Shown here: positions 40,624 through 62,179 of the stretch, one piece after another | How the letters are laid out: each line of letters starts with the position of its first letter | How positions within the stretch are numbered: the stretch's first letter is position 1 | Origin: a virus | Direction: 5' to 3' (one strand) | Virus record (IMG/VR): IMGVR_UViG_3300008267_000004 | Span: 32,001-96,000 of that record | DNA: 64,000 nucleotides | Program-made: the position numbers and the translations under genes | Notes under the pieces: generated by a model | Seen by the model: the letters and a program-made list of their open reading frames with translations, nothing else | Told to the model about the DNA's origin: nothing | The model's database searches: none

Positions 40624-41982
40624 CTATTTATCTGTATTTAGATTTCCTTGAATAGACCAAGCAAAATCTAATTGCACATCATTTGCAAACATCGGATCAA
40701 ACATATTAATGTTTTGATCTGTTGTATATCCTAGTTTACCAGAAGAAGTAGCTAGTGCATGGCACGACATACAATTTGTCTGTACTCCGTACTGGAAGTC
40801 TGGGTTTGTTTTATTTGCCATCTTAAACACTTGTGGTCCAAAACCAGCTTCAAGATATGGATTATAACAAATCATAGGCTCGTCTTTTGAAGTTGTCATT
40901 GCATAGCAAGGGGATACAGCATAGTGTCTGGCTTCTTCTTTTACCGAATCAGGCATTAAATCAGCATAATTGGTTGCACTTGGATGCCCAGGATTTTTTG
41001 GATCCGAAACCCAAAAATATGTTTGCCAAGTCCAATTTTTAATTTCTTTACTCGTTACATGCATTGCAACAAGTAATGCTACGCTCCCTTCTTGGAATTG
41101 ATGTGCCGGATCGTTACCTCTGTCTTGAAGTGTGTTTAAATATTCAGCAGTTTCTTTATCGATTCTAAAGCTGATAAAATCAGTCATATTGCAAGTGGCA
41201 GCTGCAATTTCTTCTTGGCTTGGATTTTCTGATGTAACTGGTACTAATTTTTTGTTAGGATCTTGTTTGTTGTCAACATCTACATAAATATAATTTTTCC
41301 AATCATGGTGACCAAATACCTTTGGAGGAACTGGTGTTGTTGTCCACGCTGGGACTCTTACTAAGCCATTTGTAGCTTTTGCTACGTAATAGGTAGGTTT
41401 TGTTGTAATTGATCTAACAGGAAAATCAGGAATTTTTCCAATATCACCTTCTACTAACAGTCTATCCAATACTGATTTATTAAATAATAAATTAGCTGTA
41501 GCAAAGCAGGCAGCATCAGGACTATAAGCAACAGTTTCTAAAATTGCATAATCATTTGTAATTGTTGAATTTAACACTCCTGCATGAGCTAGTTGCTTAG
41601 GGACTTTTAATTTTGTTGCTGTGTGTGAATTTAAATTACAACCGTAGTCTCTGTTACCAAAGGCTGCAGCGTCTGCTAATTGTCCAACACCGTGCCACGT
41701 TTCATAGACTCGTAAATTTCTTCCTTTATAGGTTTGACCTGTTTTTTCTGTCAAACCCGCCCAAATACCCCATGCATGTTTTGTTACTGATGCACTATCA
41801 TTTTTAGTGACCCACTCATAAATCGTTTCTTCACTCTCTGGGAAATTAAATGATTGTGATTGTACTTCTGCAAAGTCTACAGGACTAATTGTAGATGGCT
41901 TTTTAGCACCATAAATAAAAATACTTACAGAAGTTACTAACAGAACTAGAAATCCTAGAAATATAATTGTTGATCTTTTCAT
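40624..41982 (-). CDS. Exported protein with C-terminal CxxCH heme-binding motif (c-type cytochrome-like)
   Basis: N-terminal signal/anchor MKRSTIIFLGFLVLLV; QTNCMSCH near the C-terminus. Confidence 0.7.
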   Translation of the reverse strand: MKRSTIIFLGFLVLLVTSVSIFIYGAKKPSTISPVDFAEVQSQSFNFPESEETIYEWVTKNDSASVTKHAWGIWAGLTEKTGQTYKGRNLRVYETWHGVGQLADAAAFGNRDYGCNLNSHTATKLKVPKQLAHAGVLNSTITNDYAILETVAYSPDAACFATANLLFNKSVLDRLLVEGDIGKIPDFPVRSITTKPTYYVAKATNGLVRVPAWTTTPVPPKVFGHHDWKNYIYVDVDNKQDPNKKLVPVTSENPSQEEIAAATCNMTDFISFRIDKETAEYLNTLQDRGNDPAHQFQEGSVALLVAMHVTSKEIKNWTWQTYFWVSDPKNPGHPSATNYADLMPDSVKEEARHYAVSPCYAMTTSKDEPMICYNPYLEAGFGPQVFKMANKTNPDFQYGVQTNCMSCHALATSSGKLGYTTDQNINMFDPMFANDVQLDFAWSIQGNLNTDK

Positions 41983-41995
41983 TTTTTTCTCCTAT

Positions 41996-42025
41996 AAAAA
42001 AACCCACCTCATAAGAGATGGGTTA
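41996..42025 (-). terminator. Intrinsic terminator after tRNA-Ala
   Basis: AACCCATCTC-TTAT-GAGGTGGGTT followed by a T run. Confidence 0.65.
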
Positions 42026-42029
42026 AAAT

Positions 42030-42103
42030 TGGTGGACCGAGTGGGAATCGAACCCACAAGACCGCCGTGCAAAGGCGGCAGTTTACCATTAGCTTACCAG
42101 CCC
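42030..42103 (-). tRNA. trnA: tRNA-Ala(UGC)
   Basis: 74-nt cloverleaf; anticodon arm CCGCC-TTTGCAC-GGCGG; G3:U70 pair, A73, encoded CCA. Confidence 0.95.
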
Positions 42104-42106
42104 AAT

Positions 42107-42250
42107 TTATTTTTTATTTTGATTCTCCAAACATTGCTTATCAATATATTGTATATAAGGCTCTGTGTATTTATAGCCACCATCCATATTAGCTACTAAA
42201 TCTTGGCAGTATGTAATACATAAATATATAAAACACTTTGTCGCTAACAT
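42107..42250 (-). CDS. Small hypothetical protein (47 aa, not in track)
   Basis: Translated by hand; ATG overlaps the upstream stop. Confidence 0.5.
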   Translation of the reverse strand: MLATKCFIYLCITYCQDLVANMDGGYKYTEPYIQYIDKQCLENQNKK

Positions 42251-42492
42251 TACTTCGTTAAACACTCCAACGCAAGTATATCTTCATCTGGAACTGATCC
42301 AACTATTTTACAAACATATTGATTTACTACATTTTTCTTTACATAATCTGGTTGTTTTTTACCATATACTACAACACCAATTATTACACCTAACGTAACT
42401 AATGCAACACCTAAATAAAATTTTATTTTTCTCTTAGCTAGAACTATTTGTGTATCTAATTTAGATGTTGGTTCTTTTTTCTTTTTTGTCAT
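42250..42492 (-). CDS. Small membrane protein
   Basis: Start MTKKKK at 42492 with AAGGAG RBS; one TM helix. Confidence 0.7.
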   Translation of the reverse strand: MTKKKKEPTSKLDTQIVLAKRKIKFYLGVALVTLGVIIGVVVYGKKQPDYVKKNVVNQYVCKIVGSVPDEDILALECLTK

Positions 42493-42524
42493 GACCACTA
42501 TCTCCTTGCAATAAATAGTCACCA

Positions 42525-42660
42525 AAACAAGAACCAGCTTTTTATCAAGAAGCTGGAAACTTGTGTCGATCAAGACAAGTTTACGGTGGCCGAATCACCG
42601 AATCTTTTTTCTATGGATTGATCGCCCAGAAAGAAAACATAGAAGGTAGATTAAACCTAA
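42525..42660 (-). ncRNA. Candidate structured ncRNA (five hairpins, loop-loop complementarity)
   Basis: Five consecutive stems directly 3' of tRNA-Gly; loop CGATCAA complementary to loop TTGATCG. Confidence 0.55.
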
Positions 42661-42661
42661 T

Positions 42662-42736
42662 TGGAGCGGGTGGACGGATTTGAACCGACGACATCTAGTT
42701 TGGAAGACTAGAGTTCTACCACTGAACTACACCCGC
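42662..42736 (-). tRNA. trnG: tRNA-Gly(UCC)
   Basis: GCGGGTG/CACCCGC acceptor, CTAGT-CTTCCAA-ACTAG anticodon arm, U73, encoded CCA. Confidence 0.95.
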
Positions 42737-42737
42737 A

Positions 42738-42929
42738 TTATTCTACAGCAGTAGCTGTTTCTGTGTTAGTTGTAGTATCCGTAACTACATCGGTATCTAC
42801 AACAGTTTCTGAAGACGTATCCACACCAACATCAGTAGAAGTTGTTGGATCGTTTACACAAGCTACTACACAACCAGCAATCATTGCTAAAATTCCTACT
42901 ACAATTACTTTTTTCATATTTATTTGCAT
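42738..42929 (-). CDS. Small putative lipoprotein, Thr/Val/Asp-rich
   Basis: MKKVIVVGILAMIAGC lipobox-like signal. Confidence 0.6.
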   Translation of the reverse strand: MQINMKKVIVVGILAMIAGCVVACVNDPTTSTDVGVDTSSETVVDTDVVTDTTTNTETATAVE

Positions 42930-43132
42930 CCTTTGTTATAGTTAATTGTTTCCATTACTTCCTCTGCGAGGAAGTCAAACTCTCTTGTTTCTGGGTCTGG
43001 GCAGACATTTTTGCTTATTCTTTCCAGACATTGAACGGAATATGGATCACACTCCTTCACACTTAAGGTATTTTGCTCTTCTTTTAGGCAACTAACTAGT
43101 AATAGTGAAGATAAAAAGACAATTTTTTTCAT
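42920..43132 (-). CDS. Small putative lipoprotein
   Basis: MKKIVFLSSLLLVSC lipobox. Confidence 0.65.
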   Translation of the reverse strand: MKKIVFLSSLLLVSCLKEEQNTLSVKECDPYSVQCLERISKNVCPDPETREFDFLAEEVMETINYNKGCK

Positions 43133-43134
43133 GT

Positions 43135-43728
43135 TTATTCCATAATCTTATCTACAAGACCATACTTGAGACAAGTTTTTGCATCCATATATATATCACG
43201 TTTTAAAATTTCTTTTAAGACACTTTTTGGTATTTTTGTATATTTTGTATAAATTTCATTGATTGTATTCATGAACATTGTTGCATTTTCAATTTCGTCT
43301 TTCATACTCTCAAATTTACCCCACATACCGGCAGATAGTTGATGAATAAGCATAACAGAATGTTTTGTAATTGAACGCTTTTTTGCAACAACACTCATAA
43401 GCGTTGCAGCAGAAGCTGCATGACCCTCAATAATAGAATGCACTGGGGCTTTACTGTTTCTAATGTAGTCAATTGCAGAAAAACAGTCTAGCAAACTTCC
43501 ACCACCGCTATTAATGTGTAGTTTGATTTCTGGTGTTGGAATATCTAGCTCAATTCCAGTAAGGACTAGAGCTTTTGACGTTGAAGCGATTTTTTTATTT
43601 AGTTCAAAAATTGACTTCTTCGAAACTCCAGCATAGAAATAAATATTATTATCGTTATCTTCTACATCGCTAGACTCATCAACTGAGTCTTCATCTAATT
43701 TTGGATTTGCATTAAGAATATATTTCAT
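43135..43728 (-). CDS. clpP: ClpP-family serine protease
   Basis: HINSGGGS, GHAASAA (Ser), MLIHQ (His), RDIYM-A..LKYGLVDKI. Confidence 0.85.
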   Translation of the reverse strand: MKYILNANPKLDEDSVDESSDVEDNDNNIYFYAGVSKKSIFELNKKIASTSKALVLTGIELDIPTPEIKLHINSGGGSLLDCFSAIDYIRNSKAPVHSIIEGHAASAATLMSVVAKKRSITKHSVMLIHQLSAGMWGKFESMKDEIENATMFMNTINEIYTKYTKIPKSVLKEILKRDIYMDAKTCLKYGLVDKIME

Positions 43729-43740
43729 TTTTTATCCCTA

Positions 43741-44049
43741 TTATTTGTTGTTCTTCTTGTTTTTCTTGCTAAACATTTTTTCTTCTAGAGCTTCTAACTC
43801 AGCTTTAGCATTTTGATCAATACGAGACTTAACAACAAACAGGGTTCCACCCTCACCGCAACGTTTTACTTTAAATTGCATCATACCAGCACGGTCTTGT
43901 GACCGTAGTGACTTACGCATTGCATCAGCTTCCTCAAAGCTTGAAAAATAACGTACATTCGTCCATGAATCACCATTCTTCACTTCATCCTTAGTAACAG
44001 TCACGATTGTCTCCTCGGCACAGCGGCCATTGTTTGAGTATAATACCAC
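43741..44049 (-). CDS. Hypothetical protein
   Basis: ORF in context; true start probably a GTG after GAGGAG near 44005. Confidence 0.6.
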   Translation of the reverse strand: MVLYSNNGRCAEETIVTVTKDEVKNGDSWTNVRYFSSFEEADAMRKSLRSQDRAGMMQFKVKRCGEGGTLFVVKSRIDQNAKAELEALEEKMFSKKNKKNNK

Positions 44050-44052
44050 GGC

Positions 44053-44105
44053 AAAAAACTCCCGTCAACAGGAAAAAATCCTGTAAAATATAAACTCTGA
44101 CGGGA
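44053..44105 (-). terminator. Hairpin terminator 3' of tmRNA
   Basis: TCCCGTCA...TGACGGGA stem enclosing ACAGGA/TCCTGT, followed by GTTTTTT. Confidence 0.6.
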
Positions 44106-44117
44106 TAGTATAAAATT

Positions 44118-44406
44118 TGGTGGAGATGCGGGGAGTCGAACCCCGGTCCAAAAATACGTATTCTACAAAATGATACACAGGATTATCTTACAAGATATTA
44201 CAATTTATTACAGTTTAAAACAAAATTGCAACTTTTCTGTTTCGAGGCAAGTTGCCAGCCCAAGAATTACGCAGCTAGGGCGTAGAATTCAGAGTCAACG
44301 TCATCGTTGGCTTTTGTGTTGTTGAACCGTTTATTAAAGTCTGTAGCTGTTCGCAGACTTCCTGCATTTTGTTTTTAGTTACCTTTGTCGAAACCAAGTC
44401 ATCCCC
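44118..44406 (-). ncRNA. ssrA: tmRNA, tag peptide ANDDVDSEFYALAA
   Basis: 5' GGGGATGA..TTCGAC; 3' GGGGTTCGACTCCCCGCATCTCCACCA; pk1 AAGTCTG/CAGACTT with GAAC/GTTC; tag frame GCC AAC GAT...GCT GCG TAA. Confidence 0.95.
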
Positions 44407-44419
44407 AAATTACGCACCT

Positions 44420-44448
44420 ATTATAGCGCGCTAAAATAGCAGCGTCAA
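44420..44448 (-). promoter_or_regulatory. Sigma-70 promoter of ssrA
   Basis: TTGACG-17 nt-TATAAT. Confidence 0.85.
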
Positions 44449-44456
44449 GAACTTTT

Positions 44457-44675
44457 TTATTCTATTTCTATAGGTTCTTTGCAGAGACATTTCTTTTTAG
44501 AGAATGTCTCTATAATATCTTTAGGTTTACAAATTTCTCTACATTCATCTAAATGTTTTTCAATTTTATTAGAATCACATTTAATAACACCAATTATTAA
44601 CATCATTAGCAAAAAATAAGATAAAAATATAACTAAATTTATACTAATTTTTTTATTACTTATACCATCATCCAT
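44457..44675 (-). CDS. Small membrane protein with Cys-rich C-terminus
   Basis: TM helix followed by CxxxC..CxC. Confidence 0.6.
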   Translation of the reverse strand: MDDGISNKKISINLVIFLSYFLLMMLIIGVIKCDSNKIEKHLDECREICKPKDIIETFSKKKCLCKEPIEIE

Positions 44676-55865: not shown

Positions 55866-56249
55866 TTAAAACAGCTGTCGATAGAAGCTCATTGTTTCAT
55901 TTGCTAAGAGTTCACGCTGCTTATCAGGCAAAGTATCCTCAAGCAAACTAACCGTATCCGATGCAGCTGCAAACGTATTAGACCACCGAGCAATCTCGTT
56001 GCTCTGCTCAACAGTATTGCATGGACCGCTGTCGGGATCAGTATAGTCTGCAAAGCGTCTAGCTAGATGTGCAACAGCACGCTGCAAGCTGTAAACATTT
56101 TGATACTCATCGCGATCACTCCACACAGCTGATCGAATGATCGAGGCAGTCTGGTGACAAAAAGTATCACCACTCAAACTCCAATCCTCGTTGAGTCTAA
56201 CCAGCTGAATCTTTGCCGTGTCAAACAAGTGTTGCGCCTTTGCACTCAT
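55866..56249 (-). CDS. Hypothetical protein
   Basis: Start MSAKAQ at 56249 after GGAG RBS. Confidence 0.65.
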   Translation of the reverse strand: MSAKAQHLFDTAKIQLVRLNEDWSLSGDTFCHQTASIIRSAVWSDRDEYQNVYSLQRAVAHLARRFADYTDPDSGPCNTVEQSNEIARWSNTFAAASDTVSLLEDTLPDKQRELLANETMSFYRQLF

Positions 56250-56392
56250 TAGTCCATCTCCTTTGGTTCGCACCGCTTACAGTACCGTGCAACAATACAC
56301 CCACCCAGGTACTGAGTGAGTACCCAGGTGAATCTAGCACAGGTATCACATTGACCCCGCTCCTTGCTATAGCTTATCTGATCATCCCCCAT
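56249..56392 (-). CDS. 47-aa zinc-ribbon microprotein
   Basis: CDTC..CKRC; start and stop overlap both neighbours. Confidence 0.6.
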   Translation of the reverse strand: MGDDQISYSKERGQCDTCARFTWVLTQYLGGCIVARYCKRCEPKEMD

Positions 56393-56463
56393 TACCCTAC
56401 TACCTCCGTGGTAACTCCTACGATCAAAGCAACTACCGCAAACCAGACTGTCAACGCGATCAT
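56392..56463 (-). CDS. 23-aa hydrophobic microprotein
   Basis: MIALTVWFAVVALIVGVTTEVVG; TAATG coupling. Confidence 0.5.
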   Translation of the reverse strand: MIALTVWFAVVALIVGVTTEVVG

Positions 56464-56465
56464 AT

Positions 56466-56567
56466 CTACCCCAGTTCAAAAATGTAAACAACCCAGAACG
56501 CAGCAACCACTACAGCTGCCAAACCAACCGCAGTCAAAGCCTCGATAACAACTTCCTTATTAATCAC
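56466..56567 (-). CDS. 33-aa single-TM microprotein
   Basis: GTG start after GAGGT; ..ALTAVGLAAVVVAAFWVVYIFELG. Confidence 0.5.
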   Translation of the reverse strand: MINKEVVIEALTAVGLAAVVVAAFWVVYIFELG

Positions 56568-56655
56568 GCGGCACCTCGATTGCCTTATAAACCATCTTGC
56601 CAAACGCCCAGCTAACTCCAAGCATCATTGACGCAATCAGTACACCTGCCATCAT
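56560..56655 (-). CDS. 31-aa single-TM microprotein
   Basis: MMAGVLIASMMLGVSWAFGKMVYKAIEVPRD; ATGA coupling. Confidence 0.5.
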   Translation of the reverse strand: MMAGVLIASMMLGVSWAFGKMVYKAIEVPRD

Positions 56656-56786
56656 CGCCTCGCATTCTTATCAAGCATCATATACCAGAGAGCAACGCAA
56701 TCCTTTTCGCTCACCTTGCACTCCTTTTCTGCTACACAGTTTGTTAGGGTTACAACCGCCAAAACGGCGGCTAGCACACGCTTCAT
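56652..56786 (-). CDS. 44-aa putative lipoprotein
   Basis: MKRVLAAVLAVVTLTNC lipobox; AAGGA RBS. Confidence 0.6.
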   Translation of the reverse strand: MKRVLAAVLAVVTLTNCVAEKECKVSEKDCVALWYMMLDKNARR

Positions 56787-56794
56787 TTCCTTAG

Positions 56795-56998
56795 TTACTC
56801 CGAACGCGAAAGGGTATACCAATCAACATAACCCTTCTTGATTTCCCCATATGTCTTGGGGTCCAGCTTACGCAGCGAATGCAGTCGATCACTTGCAATC
56901 GTGCGCTGCTTTGTAAGTTCACGCTCCAGCTCCTCGATGCGAGCAATCGCGTACTTGTGGTCAACCTTCGCCTTTTCTAGCTTCTCATGCTTCGTCAT
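56795..56998 (-). CDS. Small coiled-coil protein
   Basis: Start MTKHEK after GGGAG RBS. Confidence 0.6.
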   Translation of the reverse strand: MTKHEKLEKAKVDHKYAIARIEELERELTKQRTIASDRLHSLRKLDPKTYGEIKKGYVDWYTLSRSE

Positions 56999-56999
56999 T

Positions 57000-57167
57000 T
57001 TACTGCTCCCGATTAAAGGTTTGAATAACTTCCGCCTCGATGCCTTCCTCATACAGATCTGCGATTGTCACTTCACCACTTGTCAAACGCTCATATTGAT
57101 CGTCCGAGAGTGTAACAATGTCCGCACAGATATCCCAAGTGCCGTCACTCAGTGCTACGATTCGCAT
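57000..57167 (-). CDS. Small acidic protein (55 aa)
   Basis: Start MRIVAL after AAGGAG RBS. Confidence 0.6.
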   Translation of the reverse strand: MRIVALSDGTWDICADIVTLSDDQYERLTSGEVTIADLYEEGIEAEVIQTFNREQ

Positions 57168-57189
57168 TACTTTCTCCTTTTTTCCAGTT

Positions 57190-57232
57190 ACCCGTTGCGC
57201 CATGCGGGCGGCTGGAAACCGCCCGAACGGGT
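57190..57232 (-). ncRNA. Two-stem RNA motif, copy A
   Basis: ACCCGTT-CGGGCGG-TTTCCAG-CCGCCCG-CATGGCGC-AACGGGT. Confidence 0.55.
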
Positions 57233-57243
57233 TAGTTTGTTTG

Positions 57244-57621
57244 CTACTTGGTCTTGCGATTAGAAGCAGCAACCTTCTTCTTCTCGCACTCGGCGTTATA
57301 CCGAGCAACCAGAGCATGAGCAGTCTCAACCATCTTTGCATCACCGTTGCCATTAGCAACTGCCGTGATGAAAGCGACCATATCGGCCTTGAGAGAATCC
57401 TTCACCTTAGCCTTAGAAGTCTTAACAACCTCACCAGCAGGGAAGAAACCACCATCGGTTCCCTTAGTCGAAACAATCTGACCCTTATCCTTAGCGGTCT
57501 TAATGTCCTTCTTCGAGAATCCACCGACGTACTCAATCGCACCAACAGGGCAACCACGACCCTCCTTGGCATTGAAAGCACGAACGAACTCAACGATAGA
57601 GGTAGCCATTTTATTTCCCAT
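57244..57621 (-). CDS. Winged-helix-like protein, paralog 1
   Basis: Shares FVRxFNAxExRGCPxGAIEYVGGFSK..K..GxxxSxKGxxGGFF with 59614..60000; wing resembles the Rrf2 SxRGxxGGY motif. Confidence 0.6.
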   Translation of the reverse strand: MGNKMATSIVEFVRAFNAKEGRGCPVGAIEYVGGFSKKDIKTAKDKGQIVSTKGTDGGFFPAGEVVKTSKAKVKDSLKADMVAFITAVANGNGDAKMVETAHALVARYNAECEKKKVAASNRKTK

Positions 57622-57695
57622 TCCTTCTGACGGTCAAACCGTCTTTGAGTGATAGGTTCAAGGGAACCATTCCCTCTCACCAACTTACAGGACAG

Positions 57696-57749
57696 AGTGT
57701 ACCACGACCGGGTTGTGAAGTCCAGTACAAAGAAACACTCACCTTAGAA
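57696..57749 (-). promoter_or_regulatory. Promoter cassette, class B
   Basis: TTCTAA-N7-GTTT box, TGGACT-17-TACACT, TAAGTTG after the start. Confidence 0.6.
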
Positions 57750-57751
57750 CT

Positions 57752-57792
57752 TTCGCTGCGCCTTGGGCGGCTGGATTTCACCGCCAGCGAAC
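57752..57792 (-). ncRNA. Two-stem RNA motif, copy C
   Basis: TTCGCT-GGCGG-TGAAATCCAG-CCGCC-CAAGGCGC-AGCGAA. Confidence 0.55.
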
Positions 57793-57795
57793 CTT

Positions 57796-57972
57796 CTATG
57801 TCTCAGCGTCGAACTTCACTCGACGCATCTCGCGGTGATACATACGCTTGAGGTCGCGGACCCACTTGCGAACCCCGCGCTTTCCGCGAGCAATCGTGTG
57901 ACCATCAATCTTGACGTGAATGGTCCAACGCTCGTTCTTCATTCCCTCGACACCACGCTTGAAATCCTTCAT
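57796..57972 (-). CDS. Small basic protein (58 aa, not in track)
   Basis: MKDFKRGVEGMKNERW..KWVRDLKRMYHREMRR. Confidence 0.65.
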   Translation of the reverse strand: MKDFKRGVEGMKNERWTIHVKIDGHTIARGKRGVRKWVRDLKRMYHREMRRVKFDAET

Positions 57973-57974
57973 TC

Positions 57975-58076
57975 CTACTCCTTGATCTTGAGGTTGATTG
58001 AAAGTCCGAAAACAAATCCCAGCGAGAGGCTGGCAATCCCAATGCAGACCATTTGCACGATAATCATATCTTCCAT
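57975..58076 (-). CDS. 33-aa single-TM microprotein
   Basis: MEDMIIVQMVCIGIASLSLGFVFGLSINLKIKE; AAGGA RBS. Confidence 0.55.
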   Translation of the reverse strand: MEDMIIVQMVCIGIASLSLGFVFGLSINLKIKE

Positions 58077-58089
58077 GCTCTTTCCTTTC

Positions 58090-58473
58090 TTACCGCTTAC
58101 CCATGAGGAAAGCGGTGGTTGCATTGACGTTGCTTGCCTTGATCCGAGTGATACCGTTTGCCTTAGCAGTAACGGCGGCTGACTTCCGCATTTCAGCGGG
58201 GATTCCAGTCTGACGCTCAAGTTCCATACCCAGATACTCATTCCAGATAAGCAACTTGCGAGTCTCGCGGGTATCACCAAGCTCAAAACCCAGAGCGTTG
58301 AGCTTTTCACCCTCACGACGCAGCACGGCATTGTTCTTGCCAATGTGCGACATGATCGCGTTTCGCGTAAGCAGTCGAGCCTTACGCATAGTCTGGATCG
58401 TGTTACGAATCTCATTCACCAGAGTTTCAATCTCGTTCTGCGTCATAGTCTCAACCGTCATTTGATTCCTCAT
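58090..58473 (-). CDS. Hypothetical early protein
   Basis: 127-aa ORF after a promoter cassette and AAGGA RBS. Confidence 0.7.
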   Translation of the reverse strand: MRNQMTVETMTQNEIETLVNEIRNTIQTMRKARLLTRNAIMSHIGKNNAVLRREGEKLNALGFELGDTRETRKLLIWNEYLGMELERQTGIPAEMRKSAAVTAKANGITRIKASNVNATTAFLMGKR

Positions 58474-58520
58474 TCCTTATTGTTGGGAGGGACCATTCCC
58501 TCTCTCAACCTTACCTGCAC

Positions 58521-58595
58521 ATTCTACCACAAGACCCCATGCCTTGGAAGCGACTGTCAGTAAAACCGACCCACTATTAAACTCGACAGTTAGAG
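58521..58595 (-). promoter_or_regulatory. Promoter cassette, class A
   Basis: CTCTAA-N7-GTTT-N4-GTGGGT, ending 43 nt upstream of TG-n-TAGAAT. Confidence 0.7.
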
Positions 58596-58678
58596 CAAAG
58601 ATCCGAGTTTAGTACTATCCCAAGGATAGCGGCGGCTGGGGCCTTTCGTGCATCCACCAGCGCGTCGATGATGTGTGT

Positions 58679-58753
58679 ATATTACACCAAGTCGGTCGAG
58701 AACGGAAGAGACTGAGAGTGAGATTGACCCACTTTAAAACAACATCGTTAGAG
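58679..58753 (-). promoter_or_regulatory. Promoter cassette, class A, with no adjacent ORF
   Basis: Same box, 43 nt upstream of TAATAT. Confidence 0.55.
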
Positions 58754-58771
58754 TTAACTTCTGGACACATG

Positions 58772-58843
58772 GGCGGCGGCGGGCAACCTCTATCCCTAGA
58801 ATATCCAACATTTAACACTTGGGATAGAGTGCCAGCCCCCGCC
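58772..58843. repeat. Long imperfect inverted repeat
   Basis: GGCGG..CTCTATCCC / GGGATAGAG..CCGCC arms. Confidence 0.65.
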
Positions 58844-58880
58844 TCTATTGATAGAACTAACTATCATCGAGGCTCTAGCG

Positions 58881-59117
58881 TTAGAGGAACTCGTTGCTTG
58901 TATCATACCAATCCGCATTGGGATCAGTATCATCTTCCTCTTCCTCGGTATCATCATCGAGGGTTTCCTCGTCCTCGACAATAAACTCGTTTGCGTGTGC
59001 CATATCCGCAACGTCGTCCTCGGACATATACTTGAGGCACGCATTGATTACCGTGTCACGGTCGAGGATTCCATCCTCAATCATCTCCAGAATCGTGTTT
59101 GTTACCTTGCGAGTCAT
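58881..59117 (-). CDS. Small protein with highly acidic C-terminus
   Basis: ..EDEETLDDDTEEEEDDTDPNADW.. Confidence 0.7.
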   Translation of the reverse strand: MTRKVTNTILEMIEDGILDRDTVINACLKYMSEDDVADMAHANEFIVEDEETLDDDTEEEEDDTDPNADWYDTSNEFL

Positions 59118-59329
59118 TATTCATCCCTTTCGTCAACCGTGACGGTTGCAATCTCAATCCTGGACGTATCGTGTCCAAAGTACAACCAAGCAGAATCGCC
59201 GTCGTACTTGTATTCACTCATGTCATACCTGCGCTCGACAAACGCCTTTGCCTTCTCATACGTCGAGAAAAGAGCAACCGTCTGCTCGCCCTGATATGCT
59301 TCAACATCCAAAACCGCGTAAACGTCCAT
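59117..59329 (-). CDS. Hypothetical early protein
   Basis: 70-aa ORF; VALFSTYEKAKAF. Confidence 0.7.
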   Translation of the reverse strand: MDVYAVLDVEAYQGEQTVALFSTYEKAKAFVERRYDMSEYKYDGDSAWLYFGHDTSRIEIATVTVDERDE

Positions 59330-59544
59330 TACCCACGCTCCACATTAAAAGTGTTTGACCAAGGATTCTCGTTTGTCCACTGATCCCAAAGCTGCCGAGT
59401 ATTGAGCAAAACATCGTCGCCATCATTAGCGTCGAGCATCTCGCGAGTAATACCAAGCACCTGCATCTCGTGCGTTTCGCAAAGCACAGCAGATGGAGCA
59501 AAAGTCTTTTCACCACAAGTAGCACAACCGAAAGTCTGCATCAT
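59329..59544 (-). CDS. Small protein with CxxC..C-H motif
   Basis: GCATCG..LCETH; AAGGAG RBS. Confidence 0.65.
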   Translation of the reverse strand: MMQTFGCATCGEKTFAPSAVLCETHEMQVLGITREMLDANDGDDVLLNTRQLWDQWTNENPWSNTFNVERG

Positions 59545-59561
59545 ATCTCCTTTTAAGTATT

Positions 59562-59608
59562 AACCCGTTGCGCCGTGCCGGGGGCTGGTTTGCCCCCGGA
59601 ACCGGGTT
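59562..59608 (-). ncRNA. Two-stem RNA motif, copy B
   Basis: AACCCGGTT-CCGGGGG-CAAACCAG-CCCCCGG-CACGGCGC-AACGGGTT. Confidence 0.55.
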
Positions 59609-59613
59609 ATATG

Positions 59614-60000
59614 CTAGTCGTCCGACTTGCGGCGCTTCGCGTTCTGCGCGTCGTAATCACGCAGAATCGCCTTTGCCTGCTCGACGGTATCCGCATCGAG
59701 CGTCTGACCAACCGACAGCATACGCATAAACGCAGCCATCTGATTCTTAACGGTTGCCTTCACAACCGGACCCTTTGCAACCGGCTTTGCACCAGCAACA
59801 AAGAAACCACCTTCCGAACCCTTGCCGGATTCCAGCTTACCGCTCGACTTTGCGGCCTTAATCTCGGCCTTCGAGAATCCGCCAACATACTCGATTGCAC
59901 CCATCGGGCAACCGCGATTCTCGTTAGCGTTGAACTTCCGAACGAAAGCAACAATCGCCTCCATCTTAGAAGCCGAAACCGTACCATTAGCCTTAGCCAT
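59614..60000 (-). CDS. Winged-helix-like protein, paralog 2
   Basis: Paralog of 57244..57621; GKLESGKGSEGGFF. Confidence 0.6.
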   Translation of the reverse strand: MAKANGTVSASKMEAIVAFVRKFNANENRGCPMGAIEYVGGFSKAEIKAAKSSGKLESGKGSEGGFFVAGAKPVAKGPVVKATVKNQMAAFMRMLSVGQTLDADTVEQAKAILRDYDAQNAKRRKSDD

Positions 60001-60070
60001 TGTCTTTCCTTACTTTCTGCGGGAAACCCGCATTGTTGGAGGCATTATTGCCTCTCAACCTTACCTGCAC

Positions 60071-60124
60071 ATTCTACCACAGCACCGCGCTGCGGTCAAG
60101 AACAAAAAAACACTCTCTTTAGAA
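60071..60124 (-). promoter_or_regulatory. Promoter cassette, class B
   Basis: TTCTAA-N7-GTTT box, TTGACC-17-TAGAAT, TAAGGTTGA leader. Confidence 0.75.
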
Positions 60125-60177
60125 CCTTCTCTTTTGTGTTGACCGCTTCACTTGCAGCGCGTCAACCTTACCAACAC

Positions 60178-60252
60178 ATTCTATCATGGGTCGCGCCGAG
60201 GGTCCAGAGACTAGCTGTGAACCCGACCCACTACTAAACCAGCTCTTTAGAG
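60178..60252 (-). promoter_or_regulatory. Promoter cassette, class A
   Basis: Full box 43 nt upstream of TG-n-TAGAAT; TAAGGTTGA leader. Confidence 0.7.
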
Positions 60253-60276
60253 TAGCTGGGAGTGAACCCACTTTCA

Positions 60277-60468
60277 CTACCGGGGACGGTTCATTGCCCA
60301 CGTATTGTAGAGATTGAAAGCGTCCTCATACTCGCGGACATAGAAAATCCGCATATCCTCAACAAAGAGTTCCATATCGACAGAATCGACAAAGAAATCC
60401 CAACCATTCGCATAGTTGGCCTTTGCGTGACCGAGGATATCATTGTACCAAGTTTCGAGAATCGTCAT
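60277..60468 (-). CDS. Hypothetical early protein (63 aa)
   Basis: Start MTILET after AAGGA RBS. Confidence 0.6.
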   Translation of the reverse strand: MTILETWYNDILGHAKANYANGWDFFVDSVDMELFVEDMRIFYVREYEDAFNLYNTWAMNRPR

Positions 60469-60522
60469 TCTTTCTTCCTTTTGTTTCCCGGTGGGGTCAT
60501 TCCCAACCATCGAACAGGTTCG

Positions 60523-60597
60523 ATTATACCGCAAGACGTGCCAGAACACCAGAGACTGACAGTGTACTCAACCCACTATTAAACTCGGTCTTTAGAA
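60523..60597 (-). promoter_or_regulatory. Promoter cassette, class A
   Basis: TTCTAA-N7-GTTT-N4-GTGGGT, 43 nt upstream of TATAAT. Confidence 0.7.
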
Positions 60598-60771
60598 GCT
60601 GTCACTGTGAGTGTTACCATCTTCACTCCAGATATTCCATGAATAAACAGGACCATCCCAAGTATCATTGTCAAACTTGACAATCCAGCGATCACCAAAA
60701 CCGCTCACAACAATGCCAGTTCCATTGATTCGCGTCGAGATTCGCATTCCGATCTTGATATTGTTTGTCAT
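60592..60771 (-). CDS. Small SH3/KOW-like protein (59 aa, not in track)
   Basis: MTNNIKIGMRISTRINGTGIVV..WIVKFD. Confidence 0.65.
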   Translation of the reverse strand: MTNNIKIGMRISTRINGTGIVVSGFGDRWIVKFDNDTWDGPVYSWNIWSEDGNTHSDSF

Positions 60772-60823
60772 TGTTTTATTCCTTCTTTATTGTGAGGTTC
60801 ATTCCTCATCAACTTATAGACCT

Positions 60824-60897
60824 ATTGTACCAGAACCACAGAAAACCACAAGCGACCAGGAGTGGAATCGACCCACAAAGAAACAACATGGTTAGAG
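60824..60897 (-). promoter_or_regulatory. Promoter cassette, class A
   Basis: Full box 42 nt upstream of TG-n-TACAAT; TAAGTTGA leader. Confidence 0.7.
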
Positions 60898-60948
60898 CAA
60901 AGCGGCACCCACACTACCAGCGAAGCCTCGAGACACCAGGAGTGAAAC

Positions 60949-61098
60949 GGCGGCTGGTTTACTCTATCCGTAGGATATAGGCGGCTGGCTTTGCCCACAC
61001 TCGCCACTCTCAGTAGTTTATCACAGATTCCCCACCCACACCAGCGACCCTGTGTGAAGTGGACAGGGAATCAAACACTACGGATAGAACCAGCCGCC
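60949..61098. repeat. 150-bp element with 21-bp terminal inverted repeats and nested hairpins
   Basis: GGCGGCTGGTT(tact)CTATCCGTAG ... CTACGGATAGAACCAGCCGCC; inner GATTCCC/GGGAATC. Confidence 0.7.
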
Positions 61099-61257
61099 TG
61101 TGTAATCGGTTTGACTGGCAGTGCGTGTGTTTACCTTATTCACCCGCAGCATATCTGTTTGCTGTTGAACACTGTGTAAGGGACTTCACCAACCGTGTTC
61201 TCTGATACTGGGATATCCTAAGTAATCAGTTTCTAGCTATATAGGTAACAGGGTTTA

Positions 61258-61446
61258 TCATGCATATGCTGGAACTAGTTTACCCATGCACATTTCACTA
61301 ACATATACAGTAACTTCCTTGCCTGTACGATTTACATAATTCTGGGATATAGTCCATGCTTCTTCATCATTTGAAGCTAATATAGCTTGTACATACTCGC
61401 GTCTGCTTTTATCTTTATCTGCTGTTTTCAGAACATAGCATACCAT
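61258..61446 (-). CDS. Small hypothetical protein
   Basis: 62-aa ORF with AAGGGG RBS. Confidence 0.55.
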   Translation of the reverse strand: MVCYVLKTADKDKSRREYVQAILASNDEEAWTISQNYVNRTGKEVTVYVSEMCMGKLVPAYA

Positions 61447-61473
61447 GTTTAAATCCCCTTATAAAGCTGCCCT

Positions 61474-61614
61474 TTAATATCCACCATTTAGCTTATCGGT
61501 TACAATCTCAATTGCCAGGTTATCATAATAGATCTTTACGATTTTGTTTTTTGTTTTCTCCCCACTTTCGACAATTACGGTTAGCGTTGGTTTAGTGTTC
61601 TTTACGGTATACAC
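61474..61614 (-). CDS. Small hypothetical protein (46 aa, GTG start)
   Basis: AAAGGA RBS; downstream of the promoter at 61668..61696. Confidence 0.45.
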   Translation of the reverse strand: MYTVKNTKPTLTVIVESGEKTKNKIVKIYYDNLAIEIVTDKLNGGY

Positions 61615-61667
61615 GGCATATCCTTTATATTGTTAAGTTACCCATATGGACCACAAATGCATCTTGC

Positions 61668-61696
61668 ATTATATCACGGGCTGATTGTGAAGTCAA
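61668..61696 (-). promoter_or_regulatory. Sigma-70 promoter
   Basis: TTGACT-17 nt-TATAAT. Confidence 0.8.
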
Positions 61697-61897
61697 CCCC
61701 TTTTTATACTGCACCGATAGAGTAGACACTTGCGCCTTATCCTATACCCCCTACTATATCGGTAGGATAGTGGCACCCTATGCGTAGAGCTATACTGGTG
61801 GAATACTACTCCCACATAGCAAATTCATCAGGTTGTATTGACATATCCGAGCAGCCCATATATAACCTAAATACCTTTTTTATGTCATTTTTTTCTA

Positions 61898-62179
61898 TTA
61901 GCCTATATACAGCAGGATATGCCGTATCTCTCCTATCTCCATTCCCCTATCTATTCCCCCCTCAACCAACTCATAAAACAATTGCAGCGATGATTCCGTT
62001 ATACACTCATAACTTCCATAATCTCTCTCCCTCTCTACATCTACATAATAGTATCTTGTTTGCAACGCTGTAGTCATTAACTGGTTAACACCTGTTGGTA
62101 TCAGGTAAGCTGGATATGGTGATGCTTTATTACTTGGTTTTCTTTTGTATATCCTCCCAAGCTTAATCATTCTTGCCAC
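61898..62179 (-). CDS. G[RK]xY[KR] paralog family member
   Basis: MIKLGRIYKRK..YPAYLIPT. Confidence 0.65.
   Translation of the reverse strand: MARMIKLGRIYKRKPSNKASPYPAYLIPTGVNQLMTTALQTRYYYVDVERERDYGSYECITESSLQLFYELVEGGIDRGMEIGEIRHILLYIG

Follow-up and report, generated by a model that had tools for sequence, protein, structure and literature searches.

The tRNA gene cluster of phage T4 encodes RNAC and RNAD (the species 1 and 2 stable RNAs), which are co-transcribed with the tRNAs. Both are described as small regulatory RNAs of unknown function and have been confirmed by Northern blotting (PMC9697503). [quoted passage not shown] 2015, cited in PMC9514646). This spacer, 3′ETS-leuZ of the glyW-cysT-leuZ operon, runs from the mature 3′ end of the final tRNA to the terminator behind it, is released by tRNA processing, and acts by base pairing; it is short, depends on Hfq, and sponges RyhB and RybB. 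Generic trans-acting bacterial sRNAs have a recurring order of parts, in which a 5′ stem-loop with the seed is followed by an A/U-rich linker and a Rho-independent terminator.

The spacer studied here, which follows a tRNA-Gly gene in a phage genome, was similar to each of these systems in part. Its layout was that of a tRNA 3′ETS, starting 1 nt after the tRNA CCA and ending in a hairpin (H5) and a U-run, and release by tRNA processing, which we infer for the phage element, would parallel that of 3′ETS-leuZ. It is, however, longer and multi-hairpin, its host is probably Flavobacterium-like, and it bears no likeness to 3′ETS-leuZ in sequence or structure. A second copy (c2) sits inside a tRNA array, as T4 RNAC and RNAD do; those RNAs were seen on gels, whereas the RNA proposed here is a candidate, and blastn against 50,697 records gave no homology between them. 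The order of parts is that of a generic sRNA, with a conserved loop and linker and covarying stems, but without a promoter of its own, a known chaperone site, or an identified target. Phage tRNA clusters are usually annotated for tRNAs alone; the spacers here hold at least one RNA family that bears signs of selection on its structure, in two diverged copies, with no entry in Rfam. Should this RNA accumulate, tRNA-trailer sRNAs and the unexplained T4 RNAC and RNAD would have a further phage counterpart in it, and its conserved loop and linker would offer a tractable handle on the role of such RNAs in infection. New in this study are an ortholog, the variability of the locus, a revised helix (P1/P2), and the negative searches.

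The window, meaning the whole 64,000-nt stretch of DNA that was analysed, comprises bases 32001-96000 of a 187,450-bp IMG/VR virus record of a freshwater phage with a G+C content of ca. 30%. The record carries 26 tRNA genes and a tmRNA gene. All genes around the spacer are on the minus strand, in the order endolysin, tmRNA, ClpP-type protease, two small ORFs, tRNA-Gly(UCC), and spacer, followed by an 80-aa membrane protein, a 47-aa ORF, tRNA-Ala, a terminator, a 452-aa protein, a SpoU methylase, and PIN-PhoH. The 452-aa protein has homologs in Flavobacterium genomes, which suggests a host within the Flavobacteriia. The features that frame the spacer are as follows.

43135-43728, minus strand: ClpP-type protease gene
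42662-42736, minus strand: tRNA-Gly(UCC), CCA encoded (ARAGORN; Rfam tRNA model, 71.7 bits)
42490-42520, minus strand: translation start region of the membrane gene, with AAGGAG (42502-42507) in a hairpin loop and AUG at 42490-42492
42250-42492, minus strand: gene for the 80-aa small membrane protein (ORF call; 93% identical in the ortholog, L038)
42030-42103, minus strand: tRNA-Ala(UGC)
42001-42024, minus strand: strong terminator after tRNA-Ala (-15.2 kcal/mol), the likely true end of the transcription unit

The spacer after tRNA-Gly is ca. 140 bases long, and the start of any spacer RNA is set by the 3′ end of that tRNA. Because the upstream ORF abuts tRNA-Gly, there is no gap for a separate promoter. 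The 80-aa membrane protein matched nothing in Pfam or PHROG, and weak homologs of its gene were found in two relatives (L048 and L050). Its start region forms a hairpin (42493-42520) with the stem GACUAU/GUGGUC (two G-U pairs), the 3′ arm of which ends at the start codon. The same hairpin, with the Shine-Dalgarno (SD) sequence in its loop, was found in L038 (2840-2868), L039 (3885-3913), L050 (805-832), and L051, with stems that covary among the relatives (GACUAU/AUAGUC versus AACUAUUU/AAAUAGUU); it lies outside the RNA element proper.

The preliminary description of this copy (c1) proposed five stacked hairpins with a kissing loop immediately after the tRNA CCA. All five inverted repeats and both loop heptamers were indeed present on the minus strand.

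42655-42658 / 42644-42647, minus strand: H1, AGGT/ACCT
42638-42644 / 42609-42615, minus strand: H2, TTCTATG/CATAGAA
42584-42600, minus strand: H3, CGGTG/CACCG (CGGUG-AUUCGGC-CACCG)
42557-42582, minus strand: H4, AAACTTGT/ACAAGTTT
42534-42556, minus strand: H5, CCAGCTT/AAGCTGG, then TTCTTGTTTT

Two details needed correction. H1 and H2 exist as repeats, but as written both use the T at 42644, and the element does lie right after tRNA-Gly, but begins one base past the CCA rather than immediately. The broader proposal of a non-coding, structured, minus-strand element directly after tRNA-Gly was borne out, and no ORF was common to its versions. Thermodynamics alone was unimpressive for c1. The advantage of the whole-spacer fold over shuffles was modest (z -2.0 to -2.15), and the RNAfold MFE structure (-31.8 kcal/mol), the first-described fold (-25.2 kcal/mol), and the comparative fold (-26.2 kcal/mol) all differ.

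Relatives were reached by following the ClpP neighbour into a large protein collection. The closest (L038/L047, ClpP 88% identical) shares the tRNA-Gly (100% identity in L038) and the membrane gene (93%), with a spacer of 131 nt between them; this spacer consists of a 5′ hairpin that leads straight to the segment ACAAGUUU, H5, and a U-run. A search of the phage's own genome returned the paralog c2 (G000:C1:109695-110126, minus strand), which lies 35 kb from c1, outside the window and inside a large tRNA array. It is preceded by tRNA-Lys(CUU) and followed by a tRNA-Tyr-like sequence and then tRNA-Pro, with no protein gene downstream. Two blocks of c2, ca. 110 nt after tRNA-Lys, are 83-84% identical to c1 and in the same order; block 1 corresponds to the H1/H2 region, and block 2 to the 3′ arm of H4 through H5 and the tail. 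Ahead of the blocks lies a further structured domain of ca. 110 nt. Taken as a 321-nt RNA, c2 folded far better than shuffles (z -4.4). Both copies are downstream of a tRNA, and the same hairpin and U-run end both. Contigs with identical neighbour proteins (L043-L046 and L123) add no information because their c1 and c2 are 100% identical to those here. The comparison set was thus three distinct versions (c1, c2, and L038) from two closely related phage lineages.

Comparison of the three versions yielded a common core, composed of a bulged P1/P2 hairpin, an apical region of 21-22 nt, the linker ACAAGUUU, and H5 with its U-tract. The revised parts of c1 are as follows.

42653-42661, minus strand: 5′ flank AUUAGGUUU, including the 5′ half of H1; AUGUAACCU in L038 and UUUUCGGUC in c2, not conserved and probably single-stranded
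42601-42652, minus strand: conserved 5′ hairpin, in c1, c2, and L038
42648-42652 / 42601-42605, minus strand: P1, AAUCU/AGAUU, an outer helix extending H2
42638-42644 / 42609-42615, minus strand: P2, UUCUAUG/CAUAGAA, the same as H2
42616-42637, minus strand: 22-nt apical region UUUUCUUUCUGGGCGAUCAAUC, with a pyrimidine run and a possible mini-hairpin
42575-42582, minus strand: H4 5′ arm AAACUUGU, deleted in L038
42565-42574, minus strand: H4 loop CUUGAUCGAC, including UUGAUCG (42567-42573), deleted in L038
42557-42564, minus strand: linker ACAAGUUU, invariant in all three versions and the H4 3′ arm in c1 only
42524-42556, minus strand: H5, with CCAGCUU (42550-42556), loop CUUGAUAAA, and AAGCUGG (42534-42540), then UUCUUGUUUU

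MAFFT alignments A1-A3 misplaced gaps around the variable domain and the L038 3′ arm; therefore, pairs were counted on a manual alignment that was checked against the sequences. On that alignment, the 11 inner pairs of P1/P2 showed three double compensatory changes and no disruptions. In L038, the fifth pair of P1 changed from U-A to C-G and the third pair of P2 from C-G to U-A, and in c2 the fifth pair of P2 changed from A-U to G-C. The chance of this pattern given the number of substitutions was p ~3e-4, a figure that rests on few events, as only three distinct sequences from two close lineages contributed. P1 and P2 are separated by a 3x3 internal loop (ACC/AAA) in c1, which is closed up in L038 to give AAUCCAU/AUGGAUU. 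Covariation in relatives, which the preliminary description had named as a check on its proposal, was present in the P1/P2 hairpin across c1, c2, and L038, and the comparison indicates that this pairing is under selection. H2 was in this way strongly supported as a helix selected for pairing, while the proposed H1 pairing (AGGU/ACCU) was kept in neither c2 nor L038.

The apical region was the best conserved part of the left block, and the loop was better conserved than its own stem. Between c1 and L038 it was identical at 19 of 22 positions, against an identity of only 63-85% for the locus on that side, and between c2 and L038 it was identical save for one indel. The c1 apical region differs at four positions, one of which is a G (42623) found only in c1 that makes the loop CGAUCAA. 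A 4-bp mini-hairpin (UGGG/UCCA) capped by this 7-nt loop (42618-42624) is possible and is present in the RNAfold MFE structure. An anti-SD interaction, in which the loop's pyrimidine run would bind AAGGAG ahead of the next gene, was considered and rejected, as the pairing was no better than that of shuffled loops.

The linker and the H5 stem were invariant in all three versions, each stem being followed by a U-run; H5 is uninformative for the comparative test because it does not vary, and between the orthologs the invariance of the linker, H5, and 5′ UTR may reflect recent shared ancestry and not selection, as this block is ca. 96% identical between the window and L038. With a 7-bp stem, four G-C pairs, and a 9-nt loop, H5 has a predicted stability of -7.8 kcal/mol (versus -15.2 for the tRNA-Ala terminator). 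Its tail, UUCUUGUUUU, is an interrupted U-tract with 6 U in the first 8 positions, and the c2 tail (ACUUUUUUU) is cleaner. A terminator consensus scan missed H5 owing to its loop limit of 8. H5 is thus predicted to be a weak hairpin of the intrinsic-terminator type, and because of that weakness a discrete 3′ end is uncertain.

As both are absent from the L038 ortholog, H3 and H4 make up a variable domain at the periphery, inserted where the core hairpin meets the linker. The size of this domain ranges from none in L038 to 38 nt in c1 and ca. 108 nt in c2. H3 has a counterpart at the same position in c2 (UUGGC-UUGGAACU-GCCAA), in which four of the five pairs are changed on both sides. In place of the H4 5′ arm and loop, the ca. 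108 nt of c2 include further hairpins; an H4-like closing helix (GCUUG/CAAGU) can be drawn there by inspection, although RNAfold prefers another register. On the plus strand, H3 (42584-42610) with a T-run (the complement of AGAAAAAAGAUU) has a terminator-like score, and no plus-strand genes lie nearby.

The kissing loop of the preliminary description rests on an exact complementarity in c1, where CGATCAA (42618-42624) matches TTGATCG (42567-42573) over 7 nt. When the five loops were shuffled 20,000 times, 1.0% of the shuffles gave a 7-nt complement between some pair of loops, and 0.2% gave one between the H2 and H4 loops. As a feature of the family, the pair failed, since L038 is missing the H4 loop, and the loops of c2 and L038 read CAAUCAA, for which no UUGAUUG partner was found in either. 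Complementarity was thus neither maintained nor covarying in the homologs, and the kissing pair exists in c1 only, where it would at most compact that version. The alternative partner proposed in the H5 loop (CUUGAU) gave only 3-5 bp in c2 and L038. Nor did the proposed architecture, five stacked hairpins and a kissing loop, hold for the family, as the closest ortholog has two hairpins only. Long-range pairings may be a recurring, non-homologous feature, as c2 has a 6-nt complement of its own between its H3 loop (UGGAAC) and GUUCCA in the insert. The eye-catching kissing loop is the least conserved part of the element, and the plain long hairpin is the part under selection.

In everything searched, only the three distinct versions were found. 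The view that the element matches no known family was upheld, as only tRNA and tmRNA passed the Rfam 15 gathering threshold in the window. When c1, c2, and the entire tRNA array were scanned permissively, only tRNA, tmRNA, and sub-threshold noise came up. Among the latter, wcaG RNA (RF01761) scored 21.2 and 14.9 bits against a gathering threshold of 42 (E 0.75 and 3.8), with only H5 of each copy matching weakly at model positions 55-84; the element is not a member. With 41900-44500 as the query, blastn (word 11) found no match beyond the tRNA-Gly segment among 50,697 phage records, which include T4 relatives. Pattern scans of IMG/VR with the H5 block, the frame of P1...AGAAAAAAGATT, and the apical loop gave two chance matches in coding DNA, and one scan was empty. 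The apical-loop pattern had 40 matches in JGI metagenome contigs, none with flanking stems and most in unrelated coding or high-GC DNA, and 20 in GTDB genome contigs, none with a P2-type flanking stem, so that no cellular or host homolog was seen there. A covariance model of P1/P2 and the loop (R1) gave 80.5, 80.5, and 71.4 bits for c1, c2, and L038, and these were the only scoring loci in the phage's own genome, in 21 + 4 related IMG/VR records, and in all orthologous loci. Matches to R1 of 23.4 bits in 13 near-identical records lay inside a 355-aa ATPase-type gene and were rejected. A search for RNA-seq runs that contain this stretch listed none.

The same site was variable among more distant relatives. 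L039/L040 (ClpP 84%) have an unrelated structured spacer of 107 nt; L048/L049 (ClpP 76%) have only 24 nt between tRNA-Gly and the homologous membrane gene; and L050/L051, without tRNA-Gly, have a plain terminator before the membrane-gene homolog. A hairpin and U-run of unrelated sequence precede the homologous gene in L039 (z -2.07) and L050 (z -2.25). In L042 (ClpP 74%), just 6 nt separate tRNA-Gly from tRNA-Ala (L042 4781-4935), and the spacer and the membrane gene are both missing; compared with L042, the spacer, 80-aa gene, and 47-aa ORF between tRNA-Gly and tRNA-Ala (42030-42736) resemble an inserted cassette. Synteny by way of the 452-aa neighbour led to relatives at 50-58% identity that had no tRNAs at this place, and to one at 83% whose contig stops short of the element. 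Because relatives at 74-84% ClpP identity are without it, the element is dispensable for this phage group. In these comparisons it is also confined to one lineage pair, at a hotspot of indels and replacement. Compared with L038, the window is 63-85% identical on the left side and ca. 96% identical from the linker to tRNA-Ala, with the break at the indel, and this recombination-like boundary falls inside the spacer.

The reading that we favour, tentatively and with considerable doubt, is that the spacer is a small non-coding RNA made from the tRNA-Gly trailer, ended by a leaky terminator, and belonging to a tiny phage-specific family. An RNA of ca. 135-140 nt would form the 3′ trailer of the tRNA-Gly transcript; maturation of the tRNA's CCA end would generate the 5′ end of this RNA, and the weak H5 hairpin with its U-tract would set the 3′ end. 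H5 probably would let part of transcription run on into the membrane gene and tRNA-Ala. The functional core would be the P1+P2 hairpin displaying the apical region (the pyrimidine run UUUYCUUUC and the 7-nt loop CRAUCAA), the single-stranded ACAAGUUU, and the terminator hairpin. Such a layout is that of a trans-acting base-pairing or decoy small RNA, in which the conserved unpaired segments would be the contact surfaces. A small RNA released from a tRNA trailer fits the element since a covarying hairpin with a conserved loop, an invariant linker, and a terminator occur together, and both copies are downstream of a tRNA. Selection on the P1/P2 hairpin does not by itself show a function in trans; accumulation of the RNA, formation of its ends, and any trans activity are what we infer. 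The phage genome itself contained no complementary target of at least 13 nt.

The main rival to this reading, which we consider unlikely but to be taken seriously, is that the spacer is structured for work in cis only, H5 being a leaky terminator or insulator and the 5′ hairpins protecting the 5′ end of the membrane-gene mRNA after the tRNA is cut, with no independent small RNA. H5 is weak, a strong terminator comes only after tRNA-Ala, and the membrane gene must be read through H5, since a promoter would not fit between H5 and the ribosome binding site (RBS). In L039 and L050, an unrelated hairpin and U-run likewise stand before the homologous gene, and because the spacers of relatives are unrelated in sequence, the job could seemingly be met by any structure; selection for P1/P2 pairing fits a stabilizer hairpin equally well. 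However, c2 keeps the hairpin, loop, linker, and H5, yet precedes tRNAs and not an mRNA, and the homologous gene of L048/L049 does with a 24-nt spacer. A mere stabilizer or terminator also would not need an apical loop better conserved than its stem. That the element has no RNA function is improbable. It would then be duplicated spacer DNA, such as a by-product of recombination among tRNA-flanking sequences, with hairpins that persist by descent. Its very narrow distribution (none in IMG/VR, JGI metagenomes, GTDB genomes, or 25 related phage records), its place in a hotspot of indels and replacement, and the boundary between 63-85% and 96% identity inside the spacer would suit such an origin. 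Set against it are the three compensatory double substitutions without a disruption, the substitution in c2 of another hairpin for H3 at that position, and the retention of two diverged copies in one genome.

A switchable leader of the membrane gene, also raised in the preliminary description, was disfavoured and appears very unlikely. As a riboswitch or attenuator, it would decide termination at H5 through alternative pairings, namely the H2 loop with the H4 or the H5 loop, or the H2 loop with the H5 5′ arm. H5 lies 30 nt before the RBS, the H2/H4 7-nt complement is unlikely by chance (p ~0.01), and, in c1 and L038, UCCAG of the H5 arm offers a pairing partner for CUGGG of the H2 loop. These alternative pairings, including that with the terminator arm, were not kept across the three versions, however: L038 has no H4 loop, CAAUCAA in L038 and c2 has no matching partner, and CUGGG reads CGGG in c2. 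Pairing of the loop with the translation initiation region of the next gene was equal to that of shuffles, and no riboswitch or leader in Rfam matched. Moreover, c2 precedes tRNAs and has no downstream protein gene, and relatives lack the element before the homologous membrane gene, having instead an unrelated spacer, one of 24 nt, or a plain terminator.

Beyond the favoured small-RNA reading, a more far-reaching version is doubtful, though a shade less so than an absence of RNA function. In it, the phage would release a new regulatory or decoy RNA from its tRNA transcripts, the apical region and ACAAGUUU of which would bind a host or phage RNA or protein, with long-range tertiary locks specific to each copy (H2/H4 in c1, H3 loop/insert in c2). 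This RNA would be one of several structured RNAs made by way of the tRNA operon, which would act as a launch pad for non-tRNA RNAs.

Several other observations were made in the same genome. Outside the window, the c2 terminator is directly followed by a sequence that resembles tRNA-Tyr(GUA) and has a long variable arm (G000:C1:109704-109784, minus strand, the same as L002:1248-1327, minus strand). It was not called by ARAGORN and scored 16.7 bits (E 1.3) with the Rfam tRNA model; Tyr is the sole amino acid missing from the called tRNA set. Two non-coding gaps of the array, likewise beyond the window (G000:C1:106904-107180 and 108414-108636, minus strand) have in common a 40-nt motif, CUAGUGUG-stem-AGCGAAGAU-stem-CCAUCGAMAAGG, which has no Rfam match and whose stem covaries (GGUAAC/GUUACC versus GCAAAC/GUUUGC), and a third trace of it (UCUAGUGUGGU) follows the last tRNA. 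A non-coding, G+C-richer spacer of 362 nt in the array (G000:C1:107355-107716, minus strand) also has no Rfam match.

Upstream of tRNA-Gly, a 63-aa lipoprotein-like ORF (42738-42929, minus strand) has a signal-peptide-like N-terminus with Cys and a tail rich in Thr, Asp, and Val. Its stop codon ends one base before the start of the tRNA-Gly gene, and at the DNA level it shares only 63% identity with its counterpart in L038, against 85-100% for its neighbours. The tmRNA (44118-44406, minus strand; tag ANDDVDSEFYALAA) is ca. 400 nt from the ClpP-type gene (43135-43728, minus strand), and the pair is kept in relatives with tag variants such as ANSDVEFESYALAA and ANDNVDFESYALAA. Elsewhere in the window, G+C rises to 0.44-0.50 at 56000-62000, against ca. 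0.30 in the remainder.
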